Assembly (NCBI GenBank): GCA_045627285.1
Contig: JAZQNJ010000053.1
Location: forward strand, 39,190-103,189
Origin: Treponema sp.
GTDB taxonomy: Bacteria; Spirochaetota; Spirochaetia; Treponematales; Treponemataceae
Direction of reading: 5' to 3'
DNA length: 64,000 bases
Shown here: piece after piece, positions 1 through 53,941 of the stretch
How positions within the stretch are numbered: position 1 is the stretch's first letter
Layout: the number at the start of each line of letters is the position of its first letter
Program-made: the position numbers and the translations under genes
Notes under the pieces: model-generated
What the model saw: only the letters and a program-made list of their open reading frames with translations
The model's database searches: none
What the model was told of the DNA's origin: nothing

Positions 1-465
1 GACAGTCCTTACGAGCTGGCAGGAACAATCGAAAAAGAAATTACAGGTGCAGCTCTGGACCAGCTTTTTGTTAACGGCAAAACACTGGAAAATGCCCGCA
101 ATGAAGAAATCGCTTCAATGCATCCTAATATGCGTGCAGAAGTAGAAAAAGATCTCCAGCAGCATCCTGAAAAAGCAGTAAAAGCCCTTGTTAAAAAAGA
201 AGGCTATCGTCTTTACCAGTACAATTCCCTCAATAAAACCACTCAGGGCACAGAACTGGAGCTGGTAAGTCCAGATGTTCTTTCTCAGAAACTTCAGGGC
301 GTGGATTACGTATTTGTAAATTCAAAGAACGGAACTGTCATCGACTGGGTTAATCCAGACCACGATTGTGCCATTTACACAAACTTAGATATTGCAGAAG
401 GTACACTGGTTCGTACAAAGGATCCTGAATATGTTGAAGGTCAGGTCCGTACTACAGGGAGATAG
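1..465 (+). CDS. Hypothetical protein, 3' part (5' end lies outside the window)
   Basis: The frame of ORF 118..465 is open back to position 1; stop TAG at 463-465; no recognisable motif. Confidence 0.7.
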   Translation, partial: DSPYELAGTIEKEITGAALDQLFVNGKTLENARNEEIASMHPNMRAEVEKDLQQHPEKAVKALVKKEGYRLYQYNSLNKTTQGTELELVSPDVLSQKLQGVDYVFVNSKNGTVIDWVNPDHDCAIYTNLDIAEGTLVRTKDPEYVEGQVRTTGR

Positions 466-1267
466 GGCGTGCCGGCACAATAAATTGTGCCGTCGGTCCT
501 TCCGCAGTTCCGCTTTCGCTTCATCCCTTACGGGACGGCTTCGCCGCTGCTCCAGCACCTCACGTGTTTTATTCCTCTTATTATTTTTATTCATTGTTTG
601 TCCATTATCTGCTCATTGCTCCAGTAAAGATCTTGTTCAGTATGTCCGTTATGATTTTGCTAAAAACTTCGATTATGGTCCGGAAGCAAACCTGGCTGTT
701 CCCGGCATTGGCTATGGTTTAAACTATAAAAATCAATTGCTGGCAGAAGCTTTATACAGTTCTTCATGGGTTACAAATGATTTTTTAATTACTGTCACTT
801 TCTGGCCCCAAGAGTTACAGGTCAACAGATATACAGCCTTTGGGTTAAAAACGACATTGCATTTTCTTGATTTTGACCGTTTTAGTACAGAACAGGATTA
901 TCTTGCAGAGCCGATCTTAAAGCTGGGAACAGACAGTTTTTATATTCAGGGCGGCATGTTCCTGGGAATAAAGCGTACGGCAATAAAAGTTCTTGATGAA
1001 TCCTTTTATGACTTTTATCCATGCTATTGTGTTCAGGCTGCAGGAAAAATCAATTCAATCTATGAGCTTTACGGTTCTTTTTCTACCCATGACAATAGGC
1101 GGTATTATCTTTTTTCTTCTCCATTATACACTCTTGGTGCCAGTGTTAACCTTGAGAATAGGGCTGTTTTTTCTTTGGAAGCAGAGGCCCATTGTGCAGA
1201 CATGTTTACCGCAAAATTTTACCTTAACGGGTTTAGCTTAGGAACTTCCTTAAAGGTGATGCTATGA
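431..1267 (+). CDS. Hypothetical exported, outer-membrane beta-barrel-like protein; start uncertain
   Basis: Hydrophobic signal-like stretch VLFLLLFLFIVCPLSA followed by amphipathic, aromatic-rich strands. The nearest upstream in-frame ATG is at 431, so the frame runs through repeat copy A. The stop overlaps the next gene (ATGA). Confidence 0.55.
   Translation: MLKVRSVLQGDRACRHNKLCRRSFRSSAFASSLTGRLRRCSSTSRVLFLLLFLFIVCPLSAHCSSKDLVQYVRYDFAKNFDYGPEANLAVPGIGYGLNYKNQLLAEALYSSSWVTNDFLITVTFWPQELQVNRYTAFGLKTTLHFLDFDRFSTEQDYLAEPILKLGTDSFYIQGGMFLGIKRTAIKVLDESFYDFYPCYCVQAAGKINSIYELYGSFSTHDNRRYYLFSSPLYTLGASVNLENRAVFSLEAEAHCADMFTAKFYLNGFSLGTSLKVML
464..564 (-). repeat. Structured GC-rich dispersed element, copy A
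   Basis: Minus strand: gtgctgga-GCAG-cggcGAAgccg-tcccGTAAggga-tgaa-gcGAAAgc-ggaa-CTGC-ggaaggaccgac-ggcacaatttattgtgcc. Aligns by eye with copies B-E. Confidence 0.8.
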
Positions 1268-2157
1268 AAAAAGCTTTATACCTGTTCATTTTAATATTAG
1301 TCATAAGTTTTTCATCCTGCTCCTTCGGGGGTTATCAGTTTGCCTTTACAGACAAAACTGTGGAAGACCGTTCCCCATGCATTCAGCAGATGGAAGAAAT
1401 AAAGCCACAATCCACAGGTCATACAAAATACAGCTTTCTGATTGTTACAGACATGCACATTGGAGCTGCACGATATTCCCACAATGATGACGGATTTTTT
1501 AAGTGGCTGGACAAACAGTTTGATAATCCTGACGAAGTAATGCGACCTGCATTTGTCATAAATCTTGGTGATATTGCAGACACAGGCAGTTCAAAAGAAT
1601 ACAAAGAGTACGCAGATTGGGAAACCAAAGTAAAAATGGCAGCTCAGACAAAACTTGGAATTGCAGATTACAAAATATTCAATGTGGCCGGAAATCACGA
1701 CATCTACAATGATGGAGCTGCAAATTACAGAAAAATGGTTTATCCCCACAGCTTCAGCTACTGCTTTAGTTTTTCAAACAGTTCAACAGAAGAGGGCTTT
1801 GACTTTTATTTTCTGGACTCAGCAAACGGCACCTTTGGAATCCGGCAGTTAAATGATCTGGAAAAAAAATTTAAGCAGAATAACAGGCCAAAATTAATTT
1901 TTACCCATTATCCGCTGTATCTTAAAGGCATAAATATGATGATTCAGGATACGCTGGAGAGGGCAAAAGTACTTACATTCCTGGCCGAAGGCGATGCAAA
2001 GCTTGTAATGGGCGGCCATGCCCATGTAACACAGAGCAAAGACTTTGGACCATTTCTTTCCCAGATTACGGCAGCCTATGCCGGAAGGAATACAGTCTGT
2101 CTTGTAACAGTTGATGAACAAACTTGTGAGGTTTCAACAAAGGTTGTCAGTTTTTAA
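1264..2157 (+). CDS. Calcineurin-like metallophosphoesterase, lipoprotein
   Basis: Lipobox FSSC; motifs DMH, GD, GNHD, H, GHAH. Confidence 0.85.
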   Translation: MKKALYLFILILVISFSSCSFGGYQFAFTDKTVEDRSPCIQQMEEIKPQSTGHTKYSFLIVTDMHIGAARYSHNDDGFFKWLDKQFDNPDEVMRPAFVINLGDIADTGSSKEYKEYADWETKVKMAAQTKLGIADYKIFNVAGNHDIYNDGAANYRKMVYPHSFSYCFSFSNSSTEEGFDFYFLDSANGTFGIRQLNDLEKKFKQNNRPKLIFTHYPLYLKGINMMIQDTLERAKVLTFLAEGDAKLVMGGHAHVTQSKDFGPFLSQITAAYAGRNTVCLVTVDEQTCEVSTKVVSF

Positions 2158-3991
2158 CCCCTGACTTAAGTTCTCTTTTTATCCATTCAACTTCTACGAG
2201 ACGATGATCAATATTTTCAATTCTGTGAAACGTAATACAGTCGGCTCTGTGAATCATTACGCCATTTCTTGTATTTGCATAACCGCAGATTAAATCTCCT
2301 GGCTTTGGAGAACAGCAGCCGGCAAGCTTATATAAAACATTTTTTGTGCCGTCAACCTGAATTTCTCCGGTGTAACATTCATCAATCTTCCGTTCCTTTG
2401 CCTTTTCTGGATTAGTTCCACGGTGCTTTCTTCGCTTTTCTTCCTGAATCTGCTGGGCGTGTTCACTCTGGGCCTGAATATCGGCTTTTCTCTGTTCTTC
2501 TGCCGCTTTATCAATAAAGGTTGGATCATTTGCTACAAGCCAGCTGTGGATTCTTTGTCTGGCTTTCGATGTCCGGACAATCTTAAGCTGATTTTCTGTA
2601 GGATGAGCCTGAGGATTTGTTATGATTTCGATGATCTGTGTATTTTTTAAAGCTGCAGAAAGCGGAATGATTTTTCCGTCTGCTTTTGCACCTACGATTT
2701 TTTCACCAACCTTGGAATGAACATGGTATGCAAAGTCGATGGCATTGGAGCCGGCTGGCAACTGTATAACATCACCCATAGGAGTAAATACAAAAATTTC
2801 GTCACCTAACAGTTCTCCCTTAAGCTTTGCAAAGAAATTTTCATCACTGAGCTTTTCGTCTTTAAGGCTCTGCAGCTGGTTAAAAATTCCCAGGTTTGAA
2901 ACATCAACTTTGTCGTGGTTTGTTCCCTTTTTGTAAAGCCAGTGGGAAGCAACACCGTGTTCTGCTTTGTTGTGCATGTCCTCTGTACGAATCTGGATTT
3001 CCAGAGGACGACCTTCACACATGACAGTTGTATGGAGGGACTGGTATCCGTTGGCTTTTGGCATGGCAATGTAGTCCTTGAAGCGTCCGTCCATAGGCTT
3101 CCACAGGCCGTGAACAATTCCGATTAAAGTGTAGCACTGAGCATTTGTCTGACAGATTACGCGAAGGGCCAGAAGGTCATAGAGCTGGCTTGCGGGAACA
3201 TTGCGTTTCTGCATCTTTTTGTAAATTGAATAAAAATGCTTTGCACGGCTGGAAACACTTACTGTAATGCCGGCTTTTTCTGAGGATTTATAGATTGCGT
3301 TTACGGCTTTTTCCAGGTACAGGGAACGCTCGTCATGCTTCTGGTTTACGATGGCCTTAATTTGTGCAAAGACATCAGGGTTTGAGTACTTAAGGCTTAA
3401 ATCTTCCATCTCATTTTTGATGGACTGCATACCAAGACGGTCAGCAAGAGGAGCCCAGATATCAATAACTTCTGCGGCCACAAGACGCTGCTTTTTTTCG
3501 TCGATGGATTTTAAGTTTCTCATTCTGTCCAGACGGTCAGCAAGCTTTACGAGAATGACTCTTACATCGTCAATCATGGCAAAGAGCATTTTACGTATGT
3601 TGTCTGCCTGCTGAATCGATGAGGCATTGATTTTCATGCCGGTTATTTTTGAAGTGTCCTGTACGATTCTTGTAATTACAGGTCCGAATTTAACTTCAAT
3701 TTCTTCCTTCTGAATGCCTTCAATTTCAAAAATGCTGTGAAGGAGACCGCAGATGACACAGTCCATGTCCATCTTTGCCTGAGCAAGAAGGGCTGCAACT
3801 CTCATTGGATGAAGGTGATAAGGCTTACCGCAGGTACGCTGAAGTGAGGAAGTTTTATTACAGAGATAAATCCAGGCCTCTTCAAATTTTTGTTTTTCTT
3901 CCGGAGTAAAGCTGTTAAAAGTTTCGAAAAACTGTTTCAGGAGAATGTCTTTGTCGTATTCGGTGTTGTTTGTAATTATGTCGAAAGCCAC
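2147..3991 (-). CDS. RelA/SpoT family (p)ppGpp synthetase with a degenerate HD domain and no ACT domain
   Basis: KLADRLDRMR, RAKHFYSIYKKM, RFKDYIAMPKANGYQSLHT, EIQIRT, TGS (DFAYHVHSKVG) and CC zinc finger; GTG start with GGAGG upstream. Confidence 0.92.
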   Translation of the reverse strand: MAFDIITNNTEYDKDILLKQFFETFNSFTPEEKQKFEEAWIYLCNKTSSLQRTCGKPYHLHPMRVAALLAQAKMDMDCVICGLLHSIFEIEGIQKEEIEVKFGPVITRIVQDTSKITGMKINASSIQQADNIRKMLFAMIDDVRVILVKLADRLDRMRNLKSIDEKKQRLVAAEVIDIWAPLADRLGMQSIKNEMEDLSLKYSNPDVFAQIKAIVNQKHDERSLYLEKAVNAIYKSSEKAGITVSVSSRAKHFYSIYKKMQKRNVPASQLYDLLALRVICQTNAQCYTLIGIVHGLWKPMDGRFKDYIAMPKANGYQSLHTTVMCEGRPLEIQIRTEDMHNKAEHGVASHWLYKKGTNHDKVDVSNLGIFNQLQSLKDEKLSDENFFAKLKGELLGDEIFVFTPMGDVIQLPAGSNAIDFAYHVHSKVGEKIVGAKADGKIIPLSAALKNTQIIEIITNPQAHPTENQLKIVRTSKARQRIHSWLVANDPTFIDKAAEEQRKADIQAQSEHAQQIQEEKRRKHRGTNPEKAKERKIDECYTGEIQVDGTKNVLYKLAGCCSPKPGDLICGYANTRNGVMIHRADCITFHRIENIDHRLVEVEWIKRELKSGVKN

Positions 3992-4147
3992 TGGTTCCTC
4001 CTTAACAATAAAGTCTTTCTATAACAATAAAAATATAGCATAAAGCAAGGGTTCGTGTATAAGGATTTTCTTATTTTTATCTAAAGATATTCTAATCTAA
4101 TTTTTTATCCGATAATCTATTATAAATATAGAAAAAAGGTTTATTTA

Positions 4148-5464: not shown

Positions 5465-6454
5465 ATGACCATTAAAGGAAAAGAAATCAAAAAATCATGG
5501 ATTGCGGCAGCCTGTGTTGTTGCTGCAACTGTAATCGTTATCATTCTTTCGATGACAGTTTTAAAATCGGATGGAGTTCAAAAGAACAGCGGAAAAAAAG
5601 GAAGGGGCAATACCGTTGTTTCTGTAAGGACTATGGAAGCTGCTGCTACGACACTTCACGGATATGTTTCAACAAACGGAGAAGTTGAAAGTCAGAGCTC
5701 TGTAAATGTTTTTCCTGATGTATCCGGTAAAGTAATGGAAACAGCTGTAATGCTTGGTTCTGTTGTAAAGCGGGGGGACATAATCGGTTATGTTGATCCA
5801 AATTCACCTGGAAGCTATTACAAACGAAGTCCGGTTTATGCTCCGATTTCTGGAAGCGTTATTTCTACACCGCTTAAAAATGGTACAACTGTTACTACCG
5901 GAACAACAATTTGCATTATTGGAGATATTAATAATCTTCAGGTAACTGCCAGTGTACCTGAGCGCTTTGTTGCAGTATTAAAGACGGGCCTTAAGGCAGA
6001 TGTAAGCGTAGAAGCATATCCTGGTGTTGTTTTTCCTGCCACTGTAAGCAGAGTAAGTCCGGTAGTTGATGCTGCCAGCCGCACAAAAGAAGTTATCCTT
6101 AATTTTGACACAAAAGACAGCCGTGTAAATGCAGGTATGTTTGCAAAGGTTGTGCTGTATACAGAAGATTACAAAGGTTTTCCAGTTATGCCGGCTGATG
6201 CCGTTGTTTCTCTCAATGAAGAAAATTTTGCCTTTGTAATTGGAAATGAAAACAAAGTTCAGCGACGTAAAATCAAAACAGGAAACTCTGTAGACGGAAT
6301 GATTCAGGTTCTGGAAGGAATCAATGAGGGGGAGAGAATCGTTATTCAGGGACAGACTGCATTAAGTGATGGTAGCACAGTTCGTGATATTTCTTTATCC
6401 GCAGAAAAAAAGGTTGATGAATCTGATAAAGCCGGTAAACAGGAGAAAAAATGA
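5465..6454 (+). CDS. RND efflux periplasmic adaptor (MFP)
   Basis: N-terminal TM helix; APISG, VSPVVDAASRT, GMFAKV motifs. Confidence 0.9.
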   Translation: MTIKGKEIKKSWIAAACVVAATVIVIILSMTVLKSDGVQKNSGKKGRGNTVVSVRTMEAAATTLHGYVSTNGEVESQSSVNVFPDVSGKVMETAVMLGSVVKRGDIIGYVDPNSPGSYYKRSPVYAPISGSVISTPLKNGTTVTTGTTICIIGDINNLQVTASVPERFVAVLKTGLKADVSVEAYPGVVFPATVSRVSPVVDAASRTKEVILNFDTKDSRVNAGMFAKVVLYTEDYKGFPVMPADAVVSLNEENFAFVIGNENKVQRRKIKTGNSVDGMIQVLEGINEGERIVIQGQTALSDGSTVRDISLSAEKKVDESDKAGKQEKK

Positions 6455-9400: not shown

Positions 9401-9546
9401 TGGTACAGCCAATCGGTGTTGCAGTTGTAGGAGGACTTACAAGTTCGACTTTCGTAACGCTGTTCTTTATTCCTGTTCTCTATTCCATGATCATGAAGGA
9501 AAAGCAAAAGGAACTGAGTTCTATCCGGCTGAATACTCAGGAATAA
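6451..9546 (+). CDS. AcrB/AcrD/AcrF-family RND permease
   Basis: 1031 aa with multiple TM segments; GMIVDASIVMIEN and RLRPVLMTTLTTILG motifs. Confidence 0.95.
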   Translation: MSISKKTLDHPVLTLIVFVLLAITGLFTIKNVAISLMPDIDSPYITVRTSYTNAGPESVEKAVTKVLEGQLISVAGLKKLTSTSREGSSSISLEFNYGTDLDIATQNIRDKIDRVVRKLPDEAGTPTIMKMDSDAMPIMRIAVNGVRSRDELKVIAEDTIADLLEQTDGVAEASVSGGRDKIVRVDISQNRLAAYGLTISAINSALSKQNLELGGGKITEGKTDYTIRTTGEFSSLEEINDTILVKKNDYVVRLRDVGTAYMGYKDKSNEVYINGLPGVYISVTKQSGKNSVTVANAVYEKMRQIEEFVPDDITLSIVSDTTDSIRDTINTLISSLVQGLILAVIVLFLFLKNFKSTIIIAISIPLSVIITLLAMSMAGITLNMMTLTGLILGVGMIVDASIVMIENIYVYRTRGAKPKVAAVLGSSEMIMSVLSGNLTTICVFIPFLLFMKDLGMMGQMFKGIIFTVVIALVSSLFVAVFLVPVLAGKFLPLTNRKEKPVTFGSLKRFYEICDVPLNILTKYYRIALDAALKNKAVTSIICFSILVMAIALAPTLKINMMPKGNDDSVQLNLTLPMGTTLNETIQVMESVEQIVRDEVKGYKTLITSMGTGGTSYKGNIQIKLPKSKFQIDNAEAVQAKLRKHFGDFAGARFNFSSGMRGQMTGSDLKIKVRSDSLDDALKVASQIRGVMEKISDIGEVSIDTEEGVPEVEIDIDRQRAYDFGVDVTTVAREINYAINGVTSTTYRENGKEYNTVIMYSREDRQKVVDLEQIYVNGTKGKVSVANFAVVKKGLGPVSIRRENQTRVVSVSADIVSETNANIVEDAIREGIAESFIIPDNVTLSWEGTWKDMKDQGKTYTQIILMAIILVFGVMAGTYESFKAPLINLCTIPFLIIGVVFIYKLSGQAFSMMSLVGLIMLVGIVVNNGIILVDYTNLLLDRGYKMHEACLEAGTSRLRPVLMTTLTTILGMLPMCFATSGSAGMVQPIGVAVVGGLTSSTFVTLFFIPVLYSMIMKEKQKELSSIRLNTQE

Positions 9547-9614
9547 AAAATTCATTACATAAAAAATTACTGTCAAATTTAGGGATTTGACCATGAGTGT
9601 TTATTGGGGGAAAA

Positions 9615-13243: not shown

Positions 13244-13283
13244 TTTTCCTCCGGTTACAACAGACAGATTCTAATACATTTAC

Positions 13284-13320
13284 AAAAAAAAATCCCTTCC
13301 GGCACTTTAACCGAAAGGGA
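13284..13320 (-). terminator. Probable intrinsic terminator between prfA and prmC
   Basis: tcccttccgg / ccgaaaggga stem followed on the minus strand by a T9 run. Confidence 0.6.
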
Positions 13321-13345
13321 CTGTATTCAGAAAATAAGCGTAAAA

Positions 13346-14422
13346 TTAGCTCTCCAGTTCTTTAAATTCTTCTTCTTTAACGTAAACGTTAAGGGCATCA
13401 AGCATATCGTCCATGTTACCCATCATAAATCCAGGAAGGTTATGAACACTCATGTTAATGCGGTGGTCAGTTACGCGGTCCTGAGGATAGTTGTATGTAC
13501 GGATTTTTTCCGAGCGGTCACCGTTACCAACCATCTTTTTGCGGGCACTAGAACGTTCAGCATCAAGCTTGCTCTGTTCATAGTCAAAAAGGCGGGCACG
13601 AAGAACTTCCCATGCCTTTTCCTTGTTTTTAATCTGAGATTTCTGGTCCTGCTGAATAACAACAATACCAGTCGGAATGTGTGTAAGACGAACGGCAGAG
13701 TCAGTTGTGTTTACACACTGTCCGCCAGGACCACCGGCACGCATTACGTCAACGCGAACATCGCCAGGATTGATTTTAATATCAGCTTCTTCAGCTTCAG
13801 GAAGAACGGCTACAGTGATTGTAGAAGTCTGGAGACGTCCCTGAGCTTCAGTCTGAGGAACACGCTGTACACGGTGTACGCCAGATTCGTAGCGGAGAGT
13901 ACCGTAAACGAATTTTCCAGAAATCTGAGTAACGATTTTGTTAAATCCGCCAACTTCAGTTTCCTGGGCTTCAACGTTTTCATATTTCCAGCCTTTGCGG
14001 TCAGCAAGGTGGCAGTACATTTCCCATACATCACGAACAAACAGAGAAGCTTCGTCACCACCGGCAGCAGAACGAATTTCAAGAATAATGTTCTTTTCAT
14101 CAAGGGGATCAGGCGGAATAAGCTTAAGCTTAAGCTCGTCTTCAAGCTGAGGAACTTTTTCTTCCAGTTCCTTAAGCTCTTCGCGGGCCATTTCCTTCAT
14201 GTCAGGGTCATCTTCAGCAGTAATCATTACTTTTGCATCTTCAATTCCCTGAAGAGTTTTTTTGTATTCGTGACCAGTTTCAAGAACGCTTGTCAAAAAG
14301 CCGTGTTCACGCATAACGTCTTTGTATTTTTTCTGATCTTTAACCAGGTCAGGATCCTGAACCATTTCGTTAACTTCTACAAAGCGTTTGTCCAATTCAT
14401 CGATTTTTTTAAGAAAGTCCAT
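13346..14422 (-). CDS. prfA: Peptide chain release factor 1
   Basis: GGQ motif, PQT (PxT) RF1 motif, IRTYNYPQDRVTDHR. Start MDFLKK at 14422; the ORF-track extension to 14554 is translation of repeat copy B. Confidence 0.96.
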   Translation of the reverse strand: MDFLKKIDELDKRFVEVNEMVQDPDLVKDQKKYKDVMREHGFLTSVLETGHEYKKTLQGIEDAKVMITAEDDPDMKEMAREELKELEEKVPQLEDELKLKLIPPDPLDEKNIILEIRSAAGGDEASLFVRDVWEMYCHLADRKGWKYENVEAQETEVGGFNKIVTQISGKFVYGTLRYESGVHRVQRVPQTEAQGRLQTSTITVAVLPEAEEADIKINPGDVRVDVMRAGGPGGQCVNTTDSAVRLTHIPTGIVVIQQDQKSQIKNKEKAWEVLRARLFDYEQSKLDAERSSARKKMVGNGDRSEKIRTYNYPQDRVTDHRINMSVHNLPGFMMGNMDDMLDALNVYVKEEEFKELES

Positions 14423-14443
14423 TTTTTTATAATACAGAAAATA

Positions 14444-14570
14444 AGCCCTTGTTTCAACGGAGCTGCCATATCTGCTTCGGAACCGTCCTTCCGCCACTCG
14501 GTAACCCTCGGCCTCCTCAGTCGCTGCGCTCCCTGCGGTGGCTGGCTCCGCCATGGCTCCAGCACGGGCT
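14444..14570 (-). repeat. Structured GC-rich dispersed element, copy B
   Basis: Terminal agccc/gggct. Minus strand gtgctgga-GCCA-tggcGGAgcca...ccGCAgg..gcGCAgc...TGGC-ggaaggac; shares gtgctggagc and gcggaaggac exactly with copy A. Confidence 0.75.
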
Positions 14571-14573
14571 AAA

Positions 14574-15824
14574 TTATGATTTTAAAAGTTTAAGAAGAGT
14601 CTGCTCAGTTTTAAGGGCCTTTAAGATTTCAGGCTCGGTAACAGTTTCATTTCCGCTGCCTGTTTTTACAGCACGGATCATAAGGTTTTTAGGAGTTCCT
14701 TCGTCATCAATAAACTCCAGCATCTGAACTTTATACCCCTTCTGTTCAAGAAGTTCACCACGGACAGCATCTGTTACTAGGGTAGAAAATCTTTCTTTTA
14801 TAAGACCATATTTTAGAAGACTTTCCAAAGTTTCATTTTCGCAGGTCTTTTTAAGCTGAAGGTTTATTTCGTGCTGGCAGCATGGTACAGAAAGAATTGC
14901 TTTTGCTCCATGTTTAACGGCATAATCCAGGGCATAGTCAGTGGCAGTGTCACAGGCGTGGAGGGTAATGATTATATCCGGATTTTTGTCTTCACCAAAC
15001 TCCGCAATATTACCCACAGCAAAACTCAGATTTTTAAGTCCCAGTTCACCGGCCATGCGGTTGCAGTATTCGATTACATCTTTCTTTAAGTCCAGCCCAA
15101 ACACCTGACAGTCAATTCTCTTTATTTCAGAAAGAAAGTACTGAACAGCAAATGTCAGATAGCTTTTTCCGGAACCAAAATCCACCACGCTTACAGGAGA
15201 ATTTCCCCGTCCGGCCATAACCTCAGGCAGAATGTCATCAAGAGTTTCCAGAAACCTGTTTATCTGCCGGAACTTGTGGTATTTTGAAGCAATAACTTTT
15301 CCGCTGTCGGTCATAATCCCAAGGCGTACCAGAAATGGCACAGGAATTCCTTCCTTCAGAACATAATTTTTCTTTTTGTTTACTGCAGCCCCCGTAAGCA
15401 GATTTTTAACTGGAGAGTAAGGTCTCCCTTCGCTTCGCTCCGGGCCGGGCTGTACAGAGTTCCGGCTTTGGCCTCCATTGCCTGCGGCAACGCCTTCCGG
15501 CGCTCTTCCGATCCCTGACCCAGGGATTTTTTTTGACAGACGGGTGATTTCTCCTTTTTTATTGGCAAGAATTGTAACCTCTTCGGTTTCTGTCCGCTGA
15601 ATGCAGTTTTTAAAAGTCTTTCCGCCGTGAAGTTCAATAAACTTCAAAGTTTCTTCCAGAGAAAATTTTTTGTGGAACACCTGCTTTTCAGTATACAGCT
15701 CAGTAAAATATTCGGTTTTTTCAGAGGAAGAGACTGACAGCCTGATTTTCACTCTCTTATATGGTAAGCCCAGAACGGATTCAATGTTTTTTACAGGTTT
15801 TGAAAAAGTTGCAGAAAGAATCAT
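14574..15824 (-). CDS. Class I SAM-dependent methyltransferase carrying an in-frame repeat insertion
   Basis: KFRQINRFLE, VDFGSGKSYLTF, LHACDTATD, VPCCQ, TPKN motifs. Confidence 0.85.
   Translation of the reverse strand: MILSATFSKPVKNIESVLGLPYKRVKIRLSVSSSEKTEYFTELYTEKQVFHKKFSLEETLKFIELHGGKTFKNCIQRTETEEVTILANKKGEITRLSKKIPGSGIGRAPEGVAAGNGGQSRNSVQPGPERSEGRPYSPVKNLLTGAAVNKKKNYVLKEGIPVPFLVRLGIMTDSGKVIASKYHKFRQINRFLETLDDILPEVMAGRGNSPVSVVDFGSGKSYLTFAVQYFLSEIKRIDCQVFGLDLKKDVIEYCNRMAGELGLKNLSFAVGNIAEFGEDKNPDIIITLHACDTATDYALDYAVKHGAKAILSVPCCQHEINLQLKKTCENETLESLLKYGLIKERFSTLVTDAVRGELLEQKGYKVQMLEFIDDEGTPKNLMIRAVKTGSGNETVTEPEILKALKTEQTLLKLLKS
15421..15520 (-). repeat. Structured GC-rich dispersed element, copy C, inside the methyltransferase CDS
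   Basis: Minus strand: gggatcgga-AGAG-cgccGGAAggcg-ttgccGCAggcaa-tgga-ggcCAAAgcc-ggaa-CTCT-gtacagcccggc; terminal ggtc/gacc. Confidence 0.85.
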
Positions 15825-15887
15825 GGTTTTATTTTAGACCAAAGTAAAATAAAAACTCAATGCAGAATCCGTGTCAGAATATTTCAG

Positions 15888-15915
15888 TTTGTGAAACATT
15901 AAAATGTTTCACAAA
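15888..15915. promoter_or_regulatory. Perfect 13-bp inverted repeat upstream of parA, built from parS half-sites
   Basis: tttgtgaaacatt-aa-aatgtttcacaaa. Confidence 0.55.
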
Positions 15916-15957
15916 AAATACTATATTTTTGAATTCGTTTTCCGATATACTATATAT

Positions 15958-16713
15958 ATGGGAAAAATAATTGTTTTTGTTAATCAAAAGGGTGGTGTTG
16001 GCAAAACAACTTCCGCTATCAATATTGGGGCATACATTGCTAAAGCTGGTAAAAAGGTTCTTCTTGTAGATTTTGACTCTCAGGGGAACATGTCCAGCGG
16101 TGTAGGTGTTTCAAAAGACAAGCCTACAGTTTATGAACTTCTCGCAGGTCAGTGTTCTCCGGAAGAAGCTGTAAAACATACTCCTGTAGAAAATCTTGAT
16201 GCAATCAGTGCCTCTCTTGACCTTTCAGGTGCAGCAATTGAGCTTGTAGATCAGGAAAACCGCGAGTACTTCCTTAAAAACGCACTGGAGCCATACAGAA
16301 ACCAGTATGACTATATTCTTATTGACTGTCCTCCTTCACTGGGAATCCTTACCCTTAACGGTCTTGCAGCCGCAGATTCAGTAATGGTTCCAATGCAGTG
16401 TGAGTATTTTGCTCTTGAAGGTATTTCCCTGTTGCTTCAGTCAGTACAGAAAGTTCAGAAATCAATTAATCCAAAGCTTGTAATCGGGGGAATTTTCTTC
16501 ACTATGTATGACAGCCGTACACGCCTTGCACAGGACGTTGTACGCCAGGTACAGGCTTATTTTAAAGATGTTGTATTTAACACAATCATTCCGCGGAACG
16601 TCCGCCTTTCAGAAGCTCCTTCTCACGGTGAACCAATCTGTCTTTATGATCCGGAATGTGTTGGTGCAAAGAGCTATCAGAAACTTGCTGATGAGGTAAT
16701 CCGTCGTGGCTAA
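15958..16713 (+). CDS. parA: ParA/Soj chromosome partitioning ATPase
   Basis: NQKGGVGKTT deviant Walker A, DCPPSLG, IPRNVRLSEAPSHG; start MGKII at 15958. Confidence 0.96.
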   Translation: MGKIIVFVNQKGGVGKTTSAINIGAYIAKAGKKVLLVDFDSQGNMSSGVGVSKDKPTVYELLAGQCSPEEAVKHTPVENLDAISASLDLSGAAIELVDQENREYFLKNALEPYRNQYDYILIDCPPSLGILTLNGLAAADSVMVPMQCEYFALEGISLLLQSVQKVQKSINPKLVIGGIFFTMYDSRTRLAQDVVRQVQAYFKDVVFNTIIPRNVRLSEAPSHGEPICLYDPECVGAKSYQKLADEVIRRG

Positions 16714-39469: not shown

Positions 39470-39612
39470 GGGGAGCTTAGGGATAGGAACGGTGTGCGGA
39501 GCGCAAACAAAAAAAGGGGCTGTCCATTCTTTTTGGACAGCCCCTTTTTTTGGTCGGAGCGGTAGCGGAGCCGTGGATAGCCCGACGGTTACGGAACGTA
39601 ACCGAAAGCCCC
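39470..39612 (+). repeat. Structured GC-rich dispersed element, copy D, carrying a terminator hairpin as its middle arm
   Basis: gggatagga-ACGG-tgtgcGGAgcgca-[terminator]-cgga-gcGGTAgc-ggag-CCGT-ggatagcccgac-ggttacgGAAcgtaacc. Confidence 0.8.
39508..39552. terminator. Bidirectional terminator between convergent genes
   Basis: caaaaaaaggggctgtcca / tggacagcccctttttttg, a perfect stem. Confidence 0.85.
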
Positions 39613-39615
39613 TTA

Positions 39616-40896
39616 TTAATTTCTGATTTTTGAAATGAGTTCTGCGGCCAGGGCATCTTTCTGTTTTTTGGACAGGTCGGCTTCGCGGCTTAATCCGGCA
39701 AAAGGTGCATTTGTGGCGGCAATCCAGTAACGTGCATCATCGGCCTGTTTGTCTGGAGTACGGCAGTGGGCATTTGCCGGGGCAAGTCCTGTGGCACGAC
39801 TTAAAGTTTCCTGCATTTTGTCTGTGGTAAGTGTGTTTATAAGAAGGTTAATATTCTTGTTGTTTTTTAATGGCACTGCACAAACTACAGGAGCTGTAAA
39901 TGTTCTTGAGGCTGATGTATGTTCAGATGGTACATAAATTGAAGAAAATCGTGATGCAACGCCGGTTTCCATCTGTCTGTGCTGTTCCAGGGACATCATT
40001 GTTGTTACCGAAAGATTTGATTTAAGGAACACATTTACATCATTTTGTGAAAGTGAGAAGACATCGTTTGTAAGAAGTTTGTTTTCCCTTAACTGCTTGA
40101 GATAATTAACACCGGAGTATAGGCTTCCGTTATAACTTCCAGCCAGTTTATCTGCAAGTTCAATGGCATTGAATTTTTTATCTGCAGATTTTTTGATTTC
40201 TTCTGCGGCTTTTTTATAGGATTCTGGGCCATCCAGTGCTTCTGTCAGTGCACCAAGAATATCAAGAAACAGTCCGCTGTCTTTGCCTGCAAAAACTACT
40301 GGATATGTATAGTCTGCTTTTTTTGCATTATTGAATTTTACTATGTCATCCATAGTTTTAATTCCGTTAATTTTTGTTGATTTGAATGCTGCTGTGTGAA
40401 TATCGAATTCCAGGTTGCTGCAAAGTACAGGAACTGCCTTAACCTTTTTGCTTGACTTGTTATACACAGCTGTCTGCCTCATTGTAGATGTCATTTCCTG
40501 TAGCAATTCTGATGACACTGCGGCTTTAGAAGAGGCGTGTTTTACGGCAACATTTACAGGAGCACCTGAGAGTGTAAAGATAATAGAAGGATTTTGATTT
40601 TTTATCTGTTTTTCCAGAGTTTCACGAGAATCATATTCAACGAACTTGTGTTTGATGTTTTTTGATTGAAGTTCATCAGTGAGAACCTGTTGAAGTTTTG
40701 CGGTTGTGTTTTTTTCCATTCCGTAAAAAGCAATTACCGGTGGGTTGATGTAGCTTTTTACAGAAAGTCCTGCCCAAACCAGAAATAATATTCCTATTAC
40801 AGTGCTGACGATTATTTTGCTGCGTTTTGTAAGGTATTTTTCCTTTAAGCTGAGCAATGCGGTTTTAAGAGATGATTTGTTTGTTGTCTTTTTCAT
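39616..40896 (-). CDS. Membrane-anchored protein resembling an extracellular solute-binding protein
   Basis: Basic N-terminus plus one TM helix; loose SBP-like motifs (AVPVL, PVVFAGKD, QETLSRATGLAP). No ABC permease or ATPase nearby. Confidence 0.55.
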   Translation of the reverse strand: MKKTTNKSSLKTALLSLKEKYLTKRSKIIVSTVIGILFLVWAGLSVKSYINPPVIAFYGMEKNTTAKLQQVLTDELQSKNIKHKFVEYDSRETLEKQIKNQNPSIIFTLSGAPVNVAVKHASSKAAVSSELLQEMTSTMRQTAVYNKSSKKVKAVPVLCSNLEFDIHTAAFKSTKINGIKTMDDIVKFNNAKKADYTYPVVFAGKDSGLFLDILGALTEALDGPESYKKAAEEIKKSADKKFNAIELADKLAGSYNGSLYSGVNYLKQLRENKLLTNDVFSLSQNDVNVFLKSNLSVTTMMSLEQHRQMETGVASRFSSIYVPSEHTSASRTFTAPVVCAVPLKNNKNINLLINTLTTDKMQETLSRATGLAPANAHCRTPDKQADDARYWIAATNAPFAGLSREADLSKKQKDALAAELISKIRN

Positions 40897-50100: not shown

Positions 50101-53100
50101 TACCGCGTAATTAAGTCTAAGACTGTAAGCGGTGAAACAGTAACAGTAACATTCGCTCCAGACTGTAAGACTAACTTTACATCTGCATTCTTCCCTTATG
50201 CTCAGGTTGTAGACAATACAAGCACAGAAAAGGTAAGAAGCTTTACAAATACAGGTGTAACATTTGCAAACAACAGCGATGATGGTGACGGTATGCCGGA
50301 AAGTATTTCCGGTATGACAAACTCAAGAACATGGGAAGCTTCTATTCATGGTAACTGGATTCCTGACGGTGCCGTTACATTTGTAATGTTTGCATTTGAT
50401 GCTTCAGAAAATGTTGCAGCCACTACTCAGGATGCAATCATGGCAAACAACAGACCTCGTATTTCTAAGATCCACCTTGGTACTGATCTGGATGGAAATG
50501 ATTCATTCTCTGACTTTGAATTTGAAACATATAACCTGCTTGGTGTACAGGGAGCTTCTCAGGAAGTATTTGATCTGACAACAGCCGGATTTAAAACAAT
50601 GAACGGCACAGTTGCAGTTGAATCTACAAGAAGTGCATTCAAGATTAAGGATAAGCTTGCCGTAGTACCGGAATTTGTTGGTGGTAACGGACAGATTTAT
50701 CTTGTTTTCAATAACAATGATACTACAACTAGTCCAAATGCTGACGGTGAAACAGTTGATTCTCATCAGACTGGAACAATAGCTGCGGGCTTACGTACTG
50801 CCGGTACAATCAGCGGTACAAAAATTGCAGGTCGTCTTTATACTATCAGCTCAGGTGATGTAGGTGCTGATACAGCTGATAATGCAACCCGTGCAATGTC
50901 ATTTACATTCTGGGATTCAACAGACGAAATGACTGCCGGTACAGATTCTCAGTGGGCATTCCTCCGTGTTAAGGATATGAATGTAAAACAGAGCGACTCT
51001 GTTAGACCAAAGGCTGTAATTGATCCGTTCTTCTGGAATGGAATTAATGATAACTCAATTTATGGTTCTTCTACTGCAGAAACCATTGCAGATCTTAAGG
51101 GGCATATTGAACTGGAAGATGACTGGGCTGCTGTACCAGCTGCAGTAAAAGCACCTCTTGTAGCAAATCTTAAGGATGGCGATCCAAAGGTATCTGGAAA
51201 AATCAGTATCGTAGGTTCAGCATACGATGACTTCCGTATTACAGAACTGTATGCAGTAATTGATGGATTTACATTCAAGAATGCTGCAAATACAAGCGGC
51301 ATTGCGACAACTACTGTAGCTACAACTGAAAATGGAAATTCAGTTTCTCGTACAATGGTTAAACTTGCTGAGTATGCAAACGGAACATGGACACCTGTTG
51401 CAGGAGGAATGGATGCTTACGGCTGGAACTTTACAGTAACAGACGGCGGACTTGATCAGACTGGACACCGTGTAACATGGCAGCTTGACTGGGATACAAG
51501 TAAGATTTCTGGTATTGCCGGGCTTAACAAAGTTATTGGTATTGCAGCAAAAGATAAAGGCGGAAACTTTAGCTTTAAGGCAGCTTCTACTGCAACAGTA
51601 ACAGTTGATGGAATTGATGTTCTTGATACAAGTGAAGCTGTATACAACAAAGCTGAATATCAGGTAGATGTTGTACCGTATGTAACAGACGTTAAGACAG
51701 CTCTTTCTGCAAGAAAAGAAAACAACTGGTCTGTATACGGAAGGTCTGCTCTTGGAAGTTACATACTTAGTGATGCTGAAACAATTAAGATTTTCGGATT
51801 TAACCTTTACGATGGCTCAACAAATCCTGTTATTACAAATATGACATTGGTAGGTAACAGGGGAACAGCTTCTACTACCGCTGTTAAGGCTGTAACAAAG
51901 GATACAGATGCAATAATTACAACTGATGCTACCCATGGAGACTATATTATTGCTACAGTTGGTAATGGTCATACATCAACAGATCTTGCATTAACTGTAA
52001 GTGGTGTACCAATTATCAACAATTACAACAATAATAATGCTACGGGTACTTCAGGGGTAACTATAACAGAAACAGCAACTTACACATATGAAAACCTCAG
52101 AAAGAACGCTTATAACCGTCGTCCAAATAACGACAGTAATAACCGTTTGACAGATGATGTTAAGCTTGCTGTATGGCATTTTAATTCCAATGCAGCTGAA
52201 GTAAGAGATGCCGGTTTGTTAAAAGAACCTGTAATGAAGATTAACCCTATAAATAAGATTGTAGGATTCAGTTTTGTTAATGGTCCTATGGACTCTTCTA
52301 TGGCTAACGGTATGCAAAATTCTTACCAGCACTGGCAGAGTAACTATGCGGCATATCGAAACAGTATGTTCTGTTATGATGATAACGGTGACTCACATGG
52401 TCTTATGACAGGTATCGATACTAACGTAGATCAGGGTGGTCGCTTCTCTTATTATACAAGCCGATGGGGACCTAGTGGTACTAATGGAACAGGTGGTAAC
52501 TATGACGGTGTTAATGCTATTCGTCTGGAATCTATTGCTGCGCCAAAGATTGGTACAACTACACCATATGTAATTATGGAAGACAGATTCCATTCTGTTA
52601 GCATGGCTGTGTCTACTCATTACAGTATTCCAACTGTGTATATTGCATACTACGAAGATATCAATAAGCAGATTCGCTTTAGATATGGTACACAGAATGA
52701 TGTTGGAGCTACAAAAATTGCAGGAACTGTAACTGGAACTACATTCGGTACAAGTAATAATACAAGACTCGAAAATCAGAAGGTTTTATTACTTGATTCA
52801 AATTCTAAGGTAATCGGTTCTGCATACTTTGGTGCTCGCGGTGGTACAAATGGTAACAGACAATATGAAATGACAAACGTTTCATATAATGGAACAGTAG
52901 CTTATGCAGCAAGTATTGCAAAGAATAATTTTGGTCAGTTTGAGGATAACGTTAATGCTGATGGTGGAACAACTGGTGGTTCAGCAGGTTTCGAAGCCCA
53001 TACAAGAAACTACAGTGTTCTTGCCAGTGATACAACATCGATAAAATCTGGTGAATATGTTGATATTGCAGTTATTCCAGGGGCATCTACTGCACAGGAT

Positions 53101-53814
53101 GTTGTTGTTGCCACATGGTATGATAATGCTACTAGCAAATGGATGTATGCATATAAGAAAAACCCATGTACAGACAACGATATAAGTGCTACTCATGGTG
53201 ATGGTTACTGGTCAAATCCTGTAGCTCTTGCTGAAGAAGCAGGTGAATACTGTAAGATTGTTGCTGACAAGGATGGTGGTGTACATATGGCATGTTACAG
53301 CGGTAACTCGTCTATTTACTATGTATACCTGGCACCTGATCAGGTACAGGCTGCTTCACCTTCATTTACTGTAGTAACAGTAGATTCTTATGGTGTAACT
53401 GGTGAGTATCTGTCTATTGATGTAGCAAAATCTGCAAAAGGCAATAATATTCCGTACATCGGTTCTTACATGACTTCTACAAAGAAACCTCGTTACGCAT
53501 ATCTTGTAGAAAAGAATGACACCGTTGATTACACAACAGGTGGTGTAACAACTCTTGGTGACTTTACAGGAAACTGGGAAGTAATGCTTCTTCCTGTAAC
53601 AAGCTTTGTTACAGCAGACAATGTAAATGTTGCTGTATGGAAAGATGCAAATGGTGTTATTACAAATTCATCGCCAACTGCAAGTGCTCCAAATGCCACA
53701 AATGGTGGAACAACAAGTGGTGTTGTCCATGGTAATGGTACTCAAAACGCCATTCTTGGATATGCAACAAAGGTGGGAACTAACGGACATATTGAAACTG
53801 CTCAGTTGAAGTAA
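41110..53814 (+). CDS. Giant Ig-repeat surface lipoprotein 2 (~4234 aa), paralogue of lipoprotein 1
   Basis: GGAGG then ATG at 41110; lipobox ILSC; the same GLGESVDTK start and the same ordered conserved blocks as 25097..39376. Confidence 0.85.
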   Translation: MNFIKKHLFTAGFAAMSVFLAVGILSCSDHVGLGESVDTKSPTISIEYPPVASIIRDKFVLAGKWNDDKGLKEIQVTVLNTKDGYKPKSGHTNPETYTATIKEDKTWQIELNAEEEDGYPLLDGTYQITVQAFDNAGNESGQTSRAFDIDNTAPVFIISKPGVTVEAVQNDHMTSSAYGALFKIDGTIADDHLVDSMEVTVIDADGNEHSFTEKNISTAGGSSVTFAHYLTDNQLDSAKEDKKALHNKYMSIIGDRKGENKYSCIVKLTDNSKVYINPSNADRSAEVIAAESKGNETSAVYLYDDVYTELMSANKLGLSATDFKNIINGNDTETAANLIDGVSVYDFLKSKEVKTDASNLSMTLNPEAGPTYQINGMEFGETLQSASAGNPASVTISAGLDGTLVNPGLVKIWVKEYSGNPANSVESDIENLVKTLDSKEYKNFKFVQAKVSLKEEGVSNVDGWVLVRDLAKNEKGETQNSGSVDTETVSVTLPAGIVLNKYYVFAVTGADQDGIPFKQDRIFGFIGNEAGVPPVIKVTEPKNLAIKNSSDSLVFSGSLSIDSESLYVEEFSATLTVTDEDAGSAIGSNNYYVAAIKEDKGIAGHSSSANDALVCNGEKKDGKWSWTWTFTPSLLPNYHNDDDRIVASEGSGKSYLYTLELYSKSSSGHDITASTNVHIDTKKPEVNVTSVTPSVAGSDFDGSNAAYLNGDITVKAVIEETNLADSSATDSEKDGITYDIRARKAVSEAPEMTASDSILSKLAGFNGKLNKAYSTSLDIPTKEITSLFATEGDLDPKIEVEVVFSAKDKAGNIGTGSTKEANNKANFIIWQKTDYPRISLGNADYEITDKENIREGANLFGTTNNNKLAVSYTDDDALDAYVVDIYSDDYDPSVSQEDNASKKKKSISGSSNNSSASQNATLPEEEGIYTVIITCTDESGLKSKAGPFKVAVDSGSPVVTVTSPGDTWLSREIDIDGTVSKTAATVDAKFVDKDGNEINVDNAKIHVIKADGEKTFGGKITYPLGTSGEKYVKFIAEDNYGQKASVIRHFQIDEQEPDIKDAADSLVSLDDSPYATVSGYVYDNMTVAKVYYQITDTATAPAFTAATESQWKELVLGSPKIYEVDGNEREYQGYTATVNLKNSPYSLTDDGIKYAYIAAKDNAGNRTVCQTPGIITVDATLPVITLKSDNDSTEFSDKDELHTKAASYKINAYVTDTNVDSLTVKDESGNDIAVGSTTNVTGGKKYEINLPLNSKEMTKVLTFRAKDTNNRDAKDVKVTVIRDNIAPVVTIHTYDAFSASKSIELKGTVTDEHFSNSAEYLKVYLIPSDPLKVKTGSVVFEKNEVAHSYNWTANFTGLEDISYQIAIVAKDTFGNYSAYSTDNTYVAKDGDGNDLVTNSLTGAGVSVDSEAPVSTITLTTAKKVLNKAREAVPGPSPYALAFGGSYYTNDNAPVLGGVITETNLVTDGDKPVLRVSIDGGPVKDVEFTSGGISAGSWTYVPNAAEGTNADTSYEYTLKLKDNAGNSFEKSFTVIIDTNKPQLTFTSPAEGESFESAPSAKINFSDDGVGIKDVSVKVYNITEGNTEVNSANYTFTKGSATGQLKFKDSYTTEGTFKIEVSAKDYLDFQSDETDDTVRTIYLDTAKPVLKEDSVGNSGLTTKDSFTLSGTITDTNALYNNGSADSDGKTPVTVTVTKDGDSDIVINVPVTMSTVSGKEHKEGTWTYTFVTGSAEAAAGQTKLSDGIYTFAIVGTDVANKTVQMSRSVIVDTEKPSITYTPAFDGAKPFVTTTHNGGWFKSNSLNFEGTASDTDNGTGINTVEYSYSTKNADSSITWSEYTAFAGTGTWKGNVENLVSGESQVRIRAKDNAGNYSDVETLGPWNIDTTVPEFKDNSLKVGFAADSVVLSSTFLANGTKDIYLEFIVSDAGGSGVADVYIRPKDGSAPTADDKVTTETITDEGEDKGKTKCTFKMIHENVRGSGAVFARIYDNAGNYADASLFSINFDNEGPAIVLNKPVDADSSTDVVEVNGKIALSGTGTDNNTLASIDEIQYSTNGTTWTALEGVTITGSYSFNVAGVDTTVLSDNTEYFLRAKGTDDAGNEGYSTPFIVKVDQNTDRPVVKFNEIVGASGSLRKYTSIITGSVSDDDSVSEFKVYASRSALTAGQLSSIDWDSFNQSAYGKLGWKAGEASFTFEPTDQNDGEIFIYFYLKDSEGGTFITGASDTHKQPYVDYKDDKDAENKEIGKLNNNTAISYKIDSNPPTFEKRYYFAGTSAEVAAKTNDKITTEIPSSITIGGTKQPVVKFVIEGKDEIGLGDMTGSLSLVDVARAAPIPVVFTRVTGTNTYTGTIDVSEMESGTYSLVISLKDISDLPATTTITVNVDNKAPSVEVRSPLKTTLLTGDVTVSGQLTDTYSEITKVKYLVMTDTYKKDSVTYTDSKLRQIMNEDIDQYNRGTEYLFEFPFDGDTYEVDGEKLVNPKLPATAKELENYKEFTDDGQIYNLPVYILAEDKLGNWIIYKDFYIHYNPYSDRPTTEILYPDPANNTPDKQNLLSGQIRLSGSAVDNVSVNSVYFQIRPDTDEYNSANADDLWGTNAKTWAQHVFGTEAIKVQNDINTGANFDADDKFWGIKASGSASWYSNLNTGYNLQITESGYSTQIGSTGTYKIAVRAVALDNNDTLGNWSVPVSFTIDPNAPSIGSAYFPQVEKKDTAAGISADTRLVQGDLYLKDQWYLVTSVEHTNGISEISYTLSTIDGSGVSSSTPEVKIVSNGSEVSGTAFKAVQKYWKTVNGEKVECSSTDPAKETSGYLITVPLNTSTGSGTRTIKIDAKDATGDKKAGSATYSFKYDNEAPVISNLTQNSTSFTSGVGLTNSNNQLTLGATVEDSVSGFSKALFYFYRESEAEGSKHTRRIYDPFIGEYTGDDPAANPARIDVTDASGNLKTGITKEELGVAGHTAPLYGVTKTVTKTANVDNSLSFTGDDIHVRTGGIVKVGDSYRVIKSKTVSGETVTVTFAPDCKTNFTSAFFPYAQVVDNTSTEKVRSFTNTGVTFANNSDDGDGMPESISGMTNSRTWEASIHGNWIPDGAVTFVMFAFDASENVAATTQDAIMANNRPRISKIHLGTDLDGNDSFSDFEFETYNLLGVQGASQEVFDLTTAGFKTMNGTVAVESTRSAFKIKDKLAVVPEFVGGNGQIYLVFNNNDTTTSPNADGETVDSHQTGTIAAGLRTAGTISGTKIAGRLYTISSGDVGADTADNATRAMSFTFWDSTDEMTAGTDSQWAFLRVKDMNVKQSDSVRPKAVIDPFFWNGINDNSIYGSSTAETIADLKGHIELEDDWAAVPAAVKAPLVANLKDGDPKVSGKISIVGSAYDDFRITELYAVIDGFTFKNAANTSGIATTTVATTENGNSVSRTMVKLAEYANGTWTPVAGGMDAYGWNFTVTDGGLDQTGHRVTWQLDWDTSKISGIAGLNKVIGIAAKDKGGNFSFKAASTATVTVDGIDVLDTSEAVYNKAEYQVDVVPYVTDVKTALSARKENNWSVYGRSALGSYILSDAETIKIFGFNLYDGSTNPVITNMTLVGNRGTASTTAVKAVTKDTDAIITTDATHGDYIIATVGNGHTSTDLALTVSGVPIINNYNNNNATGTSGVTITETATYTYENLRKNAYNRRPNNDSNNRLTDDVKLAVWHFNSNAAEVRDAGLLKEPVMKINPINKIVGFSFVNGPMDSSMANGMQNSYQHWQSNYAAYRNSMFCYDDNGDSHGLMTGIDTNVDQGGRFSYYTSRWGPSGTNGTGGNYDGVNAIRLESIAAPKIGTTTPYVIMEDRFHSVSMAVSTHYSIPTVYIAYYEDINKQIRFRYGTQNDVGATKIAGTVTGTTFGTSNNTRLENQKVLLLDSNSKVIGSAYFGARGGTNGNRQYEMTNVSYNGTVAYAASIAKNNFGQFEDNVNADGGTTGGSAGFEAHTRNYSVLASDTTSIKSGEYVDIAVIPGASTAQDVVVATWYDNATSKWMYAYKKNPCTDNDISATHGDGYWSNPVALAEEAGEYCKIVADKDGGVHMACYSGNSSIYYVYLAPDQVQAASPSFTVVTVDSYGVTGEYLSIDVAKSAKGNNIPYIGSYMTSTKKPRYAYLVEKNDTVDYTTGGVTTLGDFTGNWEVMLLPVTSFVTADNVNVAVWKDANGVITNSSPTASAPNATNGGTTSGVVHGNGTQNAILGYATKVGTNGHIETAQLK

Positions 53815-53842
53815 TTTTCTTCTGAACAGATGCGCTAATCCC

Positions 53843-53941
53843 CCGTTAGCGCTGGTAGGGGCGCCGCAGGCGTTGCGAAGCAATGGAGCGAAAGCGGAAC
53901 CCCGGACATAGCGACCCGTTGTCAGCGGCAACGGGTAACGG
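53843..53941 (+). repeat. Structured GC-rich dispersed element, copy E
   Basis: ccgtta-gcgctggta-GGGG-cgccGCAggcg-ttgcGAAgcaa-tgga-gcGAAAgc-ggaa-CCCC-ggacatagcgac-ccgttg..caacgg-g-taacgg. Confidence 0.85.

Follow-up and report, generated by a model that had tools for sequence, protein, structure and literature searches.

A branched, covarying repeat element dispersed through Treponema and other spirochaete genomes

Introduction

A 64,000-nt stretch of DNA from Treponema sp. (assembly GCA_045627285.1, contig JAZQNJ010000053.1, positions 39,190 to 103,189; hereafter the window) contains five short GC-rich islands scattered in AT-rich DNA. An initial annotation, made from the letters of the window, took these islands for copies (A to E) of one gene-less element that is conserved in structure rather than in sequence, and proposed that the element is either mobile DNA recognised through its fold or an unannotated structured RNA. 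The locus therefore raises two questions: whether five such dissimilar islands are one thing at all and, if they are, what has spread and kept them. Here we describe a family with a branched, covarying fold that is present in at least 113 copies in this assembly and recurs in a distant spirochaete family, and we weigh the ways in which it might live.

Results

The islands belong to a high-copy family

We aligned 23 copies, with the structure written by hand (alignment A3), and built from them a covariance model, R1, which recovers all five islands as members (Table 1), copies A and E being canonical. Copy B, singled out from the start as the most divergent, has the weakest score, and we class it as a divergent member because R1 gives it just 26.3 bits; its counterpart in a close relative (L171), whose release factor is 98% identical, scores 24.4 bits. 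A search with R1 found no sixth copy in the window.

The window corresponds to C53:39190-103189 of an assembly (G000) of 2.26 Mb in 117 contigs, with 39% G+C and 82% completeness. A crude pattern search of the whole assembly returned dozens of additional copies, and R1 gave at least 113 matches at E values up to 0.01 with 150 of 420 candidates scored, which amounts to a copy every 20 kb or so and to some 0.5% of the DNA. The initial annotation had allowed for the case that no further copies exist, and the outcome is strongly the opposite.

A branched fold with conserved loops and freely varying stems

The element is about 105 bases long (matched units span 84-160 nt) and is modelled as 26 base pairs in 10 helices. 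Its ends pair as P1 (4-5 bp, GCGU with ACGC), a conserved (U/C)AG comes next, and P2 pairs GGAU with AGCC around a fixed A.G. There follow a 3x3 internal loop of GGA against GGA (GGUA against GGA in one subtype) and the 4-bp P3, which leads into a junction with three arms: H1, mostly CGGC-GAA-GCCG; H2, of variable length and closed by U-A; and H3, U-GGA-GC-GNNA-GC-GGA-A. On the 3' side of P2 lie a CGAC/CGGC spacer, a variable side-arm hairpin (H4), the 3' strand of P1 and a conserved unpaired CC. In copy E, P1 pairs 53843-53847 with 53937-53941, and P3 pairs 53858-53861 with 53900-53903. The purine 3x3 loop, U-GGA-G / C-GGA-A, occurs twice per element, and the hairpin loops have the form G-N(1-2)-A closed by C-G. 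Conservation runs from T-GCG to ACGC-CC, with the pattern T-GCG-TYAG-GGAU ... AGCC-CGRC ... RACGC-CC, and the flanks are ordinary AT-rich spacer; the CTTA and CCTA endings reported for the window copies match the family's 3' end, ACGC-CC, followed by T or A.

Stem sequences vary freely provided that Watson-Crick pairing is kept, and most copies are far from identical (mean column identity 50-55%). In A3, 91% of cells are paired, with 100% for P3, which in this first set was chosen by a regular expression requiring complementarity; H1, H2, H3, P2 and P1 entered without such preselection. In a second alignment (A4) of 91 copies that the model found in about 60 other species, 93.9% of cells are paired and all 26 pairs have changed on both sides, counts that lean towards structure because A4 was fitted to the model. 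None of 500 shuffles of A4 came up to the observed values, and when partners are slid by 1-3 columns, 35-47% of cells are paired. The covariation signal far exceeds the effects of both P3 preselection and model fitting. Of the 91 copies, at least 63 have a C(GNA)G triloop in H1, and 82 a C(GNNA)G tetraloop in H3. The shared layout, the covarying 4-bp stem and the GNA and GNNA loops first read off five islands are kept across 23 copies and again across 91, and pairing and covariation in both alignments bear out the claim that selection acts on a strand-specific fold and not on sequence.

Host range and novelty

Within the genus, 19 of 24 species in a first sample gave 2-90 matches each and the other five gave none, while all 17 species of a second sample matched; copy number in the genus runs from 0 to more than 100. 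Copies thin out beyond it: nine of 20 genomes from other genera of the family have 1-6 each, three of nine complete genomes (2.7-2.9 Mb) of a sister genus (g15) have one each at the same place, and two families of the order (f4 and f5) have a few. In a distant spirochaete family (f17), 7 of 16 genomes (3.9-4.5 Mb) carry 1-4 copies with nearly the same ends, GCGUUAGGGAUUG.AG ... AAAGCCCGAC ... GGAACGCCC. Hosts of the pattern matches are gut and rumen Treponema metagenome-assembled genomes (MAGs). Non-spirochaete matches to a 17-base pattern mostly fail the model and are about as numerous as expected by chance, and the sole pattern match in viral contigs is not the element. Full-length copies scoring up to 87 bits do occur in MAGs labelled Lachnospiraceae (L041, L091, L093; CAVJSA01) and Collinsella (L050; CAVEBK01); either these Firmicutes- and Actinobacteria-labelled bins are mislabelled or contaminated, or the element has been transferred.

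The family appears to be undescribed so far. Rfam 15 gave no match in the window at gathering scores; at E values up to 5-10, copies B, C and E and ten canonical copies drew scattered noise only, and copies from sister genera and from f17 drew nothing. A full-text literature search found no description of the repeat family.

Duplicated copies and filled sites

Several copies are near-identical at unrelated loci. The pair C73:6620 and C76:2097 is 100% identical over 95 nt between unrelated flanks, C87:7858 and C87:9596 are 95% identical, and C105:27058 matches C18:1928 at 90% identity, a compensatory change in P1 being among the differences. Since likeness within such pairs stops where the element stops, the element is itself the unit that is duplicated. 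At one locus (L166), two 95%-identical direct copies flank a single accessory gene (AlbA_2 / HATPase_c_4, 483 aa), which adjoins a PIN and DUF2281 toxin-antitoxin pair.

Orthologous sites differ in the presence of the element. Copy C is read in frame and in sense, as about residues 101-137, within the linker of a Methyltransf_32 protein. This linker is filled in four genomes (G000, G047, G072 and G063), and it is short and without insert in the closest homologues (P0002-P0004, 67-72% identity) and in several others. The DNA of L171 aligns on both sides of copy C, with 33 nt in place of the 111 nt of G000. Upstream of the methyltransferase gene, the spacer contains a copy in L171, G047 and G072 and none in G000. 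In its near-identical pairs and its filled and empty sites, the family behaves as inserted DNA, as expected of the dispersed, gene-less element proposed initially. Three DNA sequencing runs checked for filled and empty junctions contained only short contigs of mixed relatives, none of them usable, and an exact-protein look-up for strain variants found none on record.

Two further copies are read in frame and in sense, so that interdomain linkers of three proteins hold one: the methyltransferase, a two-domain ABC ATPase and a pseudouridine synthase. Copy B touches coding sequence in another way. It starts at the methyltransferase stop codon and lies in sense, 5' of the probable true start of the release-factor gene (M45, ATG at 14421; MDFLKKIDEL). 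The 402-aa open reading frame (ORF) of the release factor opens 44 codons before that likely start, its N-terminal extension being read-through of copy B, and the gene call in the close relative is also 402 aa long.

Two observations concern the methyltransferase region as such. Between the window (13266-16370) and L171, identity in the release factor is 98% for protein and 87% for DNA, and in the N-terminal half of the methyltransferase it is 73% for DNA; to judge from the sequences, this mosaic divergence suggests a recombination boundary at or near copy C. In the methyltransferase orthologue of G047, a single in-frame stop (FGLD*KKDV) occupies the place of Leu in G000; it is either a sequencing error or the mark of a pseudogene.

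Placement relative to genes

The window copies occur both sense and antisense, as first described. Copy A is intergenic and antisense to both flanking genes, which lie on the + strand, and the ORF that ends at 465 shares its TAG stop with the 3' end of the copy; B and C are sense, as described above. Copy D lies between convergent genes, its 3' end and the stop of the gene at 39616-40896(-) being 2 nt apart, and copy E is intergenic and sense, 25 nt past the stop of a 4249-aa gene. With genes taken from a greedy ORF proxy, the spacer copies of G000 fall into 40 tandem sense, 22 tandem antisense, 22 convergent and 19 divergent contexts. Orientation relative to GC skew is 38 versus 33, which indicates no replication-strand bias (68% of genes follow the skew), and at 73 loci of other species no gene family recurs as a neighbour. 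Neither transcription nor replication seems to govern placement.

A further pattern concerns stop codons. In 39 of 82 cases in G000, 20 nt or less separate the 3' end (…GCCC) from the stop of a converging gene. Often the end overlaps or touches that stop, as CCC-TA or CCC-TTA, which on the other strand reads TAG or TAA (in the window, for instance, at 463-465 and 39614-39618). For the 5' end and the stop of a same-strand gene, such closeness is found in 21 of 83 cases. In convergent spacers the 3' distance is 16 nt or less in 18 of 20 cases. The asymmetry between the ends is weak in the cross-species sample (17/50 versus 14/50), and stop adjacency of the 3' end recurs in three of five f17 copies. 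This asymmetry may reflect target choice or the survival of insertions.

Two other repeats share these genomes. One, of about 100 nt, has about 10 copies that are 77-90% identical; it lies directly 5' of seven element copies, and also occurs alone and in tandem. It ends in CCCTGAC, complementary to the element's GTCAGGG, and could compete with P1/P2. The other is a GC-rich family (…GGGTAGCGGAAAAGACCGCAGC.CAGCGAGGACTTTGGAGCGCAGGG…) of at least four copies, without an Rfam match at gathering score.

Indications of a DNA-level fold

We asked which nucleic acid the fold fits better. The four core helices contain 2 G.U and 3 A.C oppositions among about 1310 cells, and P1 and H4 together contain 48 G.U versus 30 A.C; folded RNAs tolerate G.U much better than A.C. 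The H3 loops comprise 35 GNRA and 41 GNYA sequences, with no purine preference at the third base. The C(GNA)G motif, as the initial annotation stated, is exceptionally stable in DNA mini-hairpins. In 6 of 114 copies, including copy D, arm H2 is a terminator-like hairpin with a GC stem between A5-7 and T5-7; these six arms have five stem sequences, one of which is shared by two near-identical copies. Such an H2 terminator would end a transcript, in either direction, before the 3' half of the element, yet the 3' half stays paired, which favours a DNA-level fold. On these features of the sequence, a DNA-level or single-stranded DNA fold seems somewhat the more probable, and an RNA fold distinctly less so, though it keeps appreciable weight. 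The DNA-level fold suggested initially thus gains support of an indirect kind, from G.U being about as frequent as A.C, from the GNA and GNNA loops, from the embedded terminators and from the mixed orientation.

Table 1. Locations of element copies and other features. Positions without a prefix refer to the window; R1 scores are from the covariance model.
Feature	Location	Strand	Basis or remark
Copy A, canonical	463..568	-	R1 92.6 bits; sequence; ORFs
Copy B, divergent, enlarged interior	14455..14575	-	R1 26.3 bits, E 2e-7 (400-nt search)
Copy C	15416..15524	-	R1 67.0 bits; Pfam; translation
Copy D	39471..39614	+	R1 46.8 bits; fold z-score -5.9
Bidirectional-terminator-like hairpin (A7-stem-T7), arm H2 of copy D	39509..39551		sequence
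Copy E, canonical	53840..53945	+	R1 88.2 bits; sequence; fold
Release-factor ORF	13346-14554	-	402 aa
Release-factor gene call, close relative	L171:1857-3065		402 aa
Methyltransferase orthologue of G047	L163:498-1772	-	one in-frame stop
In-frame copy, linker of two-domain ABC ATPase	L183:758-861	sense	
In-frame copy, linker of RluA-type pseudouridine synthase	L184:893-983	sense	
Direct copies flanking accessory gene	L166:2359-2468; L166:4097-4199		95% identical
Sole Y1_Tnp gene of G000, IS200-like	C40:17672-18007 (= L170:1429-1767)	- (L170)	stands alone, without TnpB
IS110-family transposase	L182:44-1147	-	
Full copy near IS110 gene	L182:1609-1727	+	
Short sequence between IS110 gene and copy	L182:1375-1400		
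Second repeat, about 100 nt	L008:210-302 (= G000 C72:5328-5420); C93:5331-5430; C66:9578-9677, 3691-3785		
Second repeat, more copies	C98:2265-2364, 2395-2484; C116:23-119		
Other GC-rich repeat	L168:1179-1221, 1994-2036, 5697-5770; L169:800-862		

Discussion

How the element may live

We consider it about an even call that the islands are a non-autonomous interspersed repeat, with a lifestyle like that of repetitive extragenic palindromic (REP) sequences or MITEs (miniature transposable elements with inverted repeats), defined by a branched single-strand fold. Mobility would then be the cause of the copy-number swings and of the filled and empty sites. New copies would arise by copying of the whole unit. 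They would enter AT-rich spacers, in many cases next to a stop codon, and now and then the linkers of proteins, with the reading frame kept; no target duplication would result. The purine-rich strand would be recognised, most likely as single-stranded or extruded DNA, by a protein acting in trans that makes or keeps the copies. A bolder version, which we hold only tentatively, is a spirochaete-wide class of elements defined by a branched single-stranded DNA fold (a four-way junction, twin GGA/GGA loops and C(GNA)G mini-hairpins), handled by an enzyme other than Y1/HUH, TnpB, reverse transcriptase or integron integrase, and tolerant of cargo arms such as terminators and of translation.

Several observations weigh against a mobile repeat of this kind. 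Of the empty orthologous sites that the initial annotation anticipated, we found presence/absence differences but no truly clean empty site, the "empty" sites holding other short sequence. At the methyltransferase linker, P3 is paired differently in three lineages (AGAG/CTCT, ACCG/CGGT and GAAG/CTTC), and the keeping of the pairing with three sequences at one site suggests selection in place, unless there were separate insertions or gene conversion; a purely selfish element would not predict such selection. No k-mer is duplicated at any offset around the copies above shuffled expectation, and there are no terminal inverted repeats beyond the 4-5 bp of P1. The sense orientation is modestly favoured in tandem spacers, and all three intragenic copies are sense. 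The conserved purine-rich 3x3 loops and the GNRA-like loops, present on one strand only, are typical of folded RNAs.

The search for a partner enzyme likewise counts against the mechanism. The Y1/HUH partner proposed initially gained no support: G000 has a single IS200-like Y1 gene with no element copy within 1.5 kb, and across 24 species of the genus, seven of which have Y1 genes, copy number does not follow the occurrence of these genes, with the proviso that absence of Y1 from a genome is uncertain because the genomes are MAGs. Neither a TnpB domain, a reverse transcriptase nor DUF559 was found in the 82% complete G000, and matches to the integron integrase model TIGR02249 reach at most 71 bits against a cut-off of 265. 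Genes of the Rpn/Transposase_31 group show no correlation with copy number, Rpn-type nucleases being, if anything, commonest in copy-free species. In a single case, a full copy has an IS110-family transposase gene about 460 nt away, and between the two is a short GCGTTAGCGGCAACGCC that resembles the two ends of the element joined without the interior.

Much of this would be at home in a different account, in which the element is a cis-acting structured RNA module in mRNAs (a stabiliser in 3' untranslated regions, a processing site, a terminator helper or a binder of a GGA- or tandem-G.A-recognising protein) that spread and is now kept by the host site by site. The covariation is strong and strand-specific, the tandem-G.A type internal loops and G...A-closed hairpin loops are usual in RNA, and the sense excess, the sense intragenic copies and the linker copies that keep pairing through different sequences are as this account would have them; between roughly a quarter and a half of the copies have a stop codon no more than 20 nt away, and T is enriched directly after P1. 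Yet a third of the tandem copies are antisense and 19 copies lie in divergent spacers, and no common gene context emerges. G.U shows no excess over A.C, with hardly any of either in the core stems; the GNNA loops lack the third-position purine preference, C(GNA)G triloops prevail, and in six copies the fold encloses a terminator. We regard the RNA module as possible, though rather unlikely.

That the core stems are strictly Watson-Crick means that both strands could fold, which invites the account of a DNA site, double-stranded or cruciform and bound by a nucleoid or topology protein, like the REP and bacterial interspersed mosaic element (BIME) sites that bind gyrase and integration host factor, where both strands must pair. 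A spacing of about one copy per 20 kb and an orientation free of replication and transcription would suit such a site; conserved loops that are purine-rich on one strand only (GGA/GGA, GNA, GNNA) would be needless for a symmetric reader, however, and a copy number of 0 to more than 100 among species of one genus is hard to fit with housekeeping, so we consider this account improbable. Least probable, in our judgement, are genes for trans-acting small RNAs or self-cleaving ribozymes: multi-copy ribozymes exist, and the compact multi-helix junction with invariant junction nucleotides recalls them, but no promoter or terminator is conserved at the ends, copies sit inside ORFs or overlap stop codons, loops and the H2 and H4 arms vary freely, and no Rfam ribozyme family matches.

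Relation to known repeats

If the element is an interspersed repeat, its closest analogues in lifestyle are the REP, BIME and REPIN (REP doublet) sequences of Proteobacteria with their RAYT (Y1 HUH) transposases (PMC3479197, PMC5581495, PMC3733652). Like these, it is a high-copy, gene-less, GC-rich hairpin repeat of spacers, often just past stops, without target duplication, differing greatly in copy number between relatives and presumably read on one strand. Unlike the 20-40 nt REP palindrome, it has 100-130 nt and five to seven helices in a multi-way junction; its 5' head is GCG-TYAG and not GTAG or CGTC; it occurs as singlets, with one tight doublet (120 nt or less) among 114 copies, whereas REPINs are inverted doublets; and its host is a spirochaete, in which no RAYT-like gene is flanked by copies or tracks their number.

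The nearest published thing is the pair of motifs TD-1 and TD-2 of T. denticola, which are multi-copy, covarying and built of modular stems, lie in mixed orientation relative to genes, and are reported only from that species (PMC1950547). The element, compared here with the published description only, shares the mixed orientation; it differs in not being confined to one species, and no complete genome of sister genus g15 has more than one copy of it.

Two other comparisons concern behaviour. Rickettsia palindromic elements insert in frame in genes and are translated as extra peptides. Three copies of the present element do likewise, a shared behaviour that does not imply homology, since host, sequence and fold are unrelated and most copies here are intergenic. 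Integron attC sites are conserved in structure and not in sequence and are read as folded single-stranded DNA. The element differs from them in the opposite polarity of its end boxes (5' GTT ... AAC 3', within GCGTT ... AACGC, against RYYYAAC ... GTTRRRY in attC), in lacking cassette arrays and an integron integrase above cut-off, and in the scatter of its copies among housekeeping genes. Against a MITE speak the missing target-site duplication and a terminal pairing limited to P1. For IS200/IS605 derivatives (palindrome-associated transposable elements) or a TnpB guide-RNA scaffold, there is no TnpB domain, no replication bias (38 versus 33) and no match to the IS605-orfB family of Rfam. Because the defining tests of REP/RAYT, MITEs, IS200/IS605 derivatives and attC fail, we place the element outside all four.

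Implications

Repeats defined by structure have been known mainly as the simple palindromes of Proteobacteria, REP with RAYT, and as integron attC sites. The family described here has a far more elaborate fold with exceptionally clean covariation, makes up about 0.5% of the genome of a gut spirochaete, recurs in two families of spirochaetes, is inserted in frame in proteins and can harbour terminators, all without the usual enzymes. Its practical effects include broken MAG assemblies and lengthened ORF calls, as in the release factor, and its covariance model merits a place in Rfam and in repeat libraries. Once what recognises the element is identified, either a mobilisation system specific for DNA structure or a class of abundant bacterial RNA modules would be added to those known.

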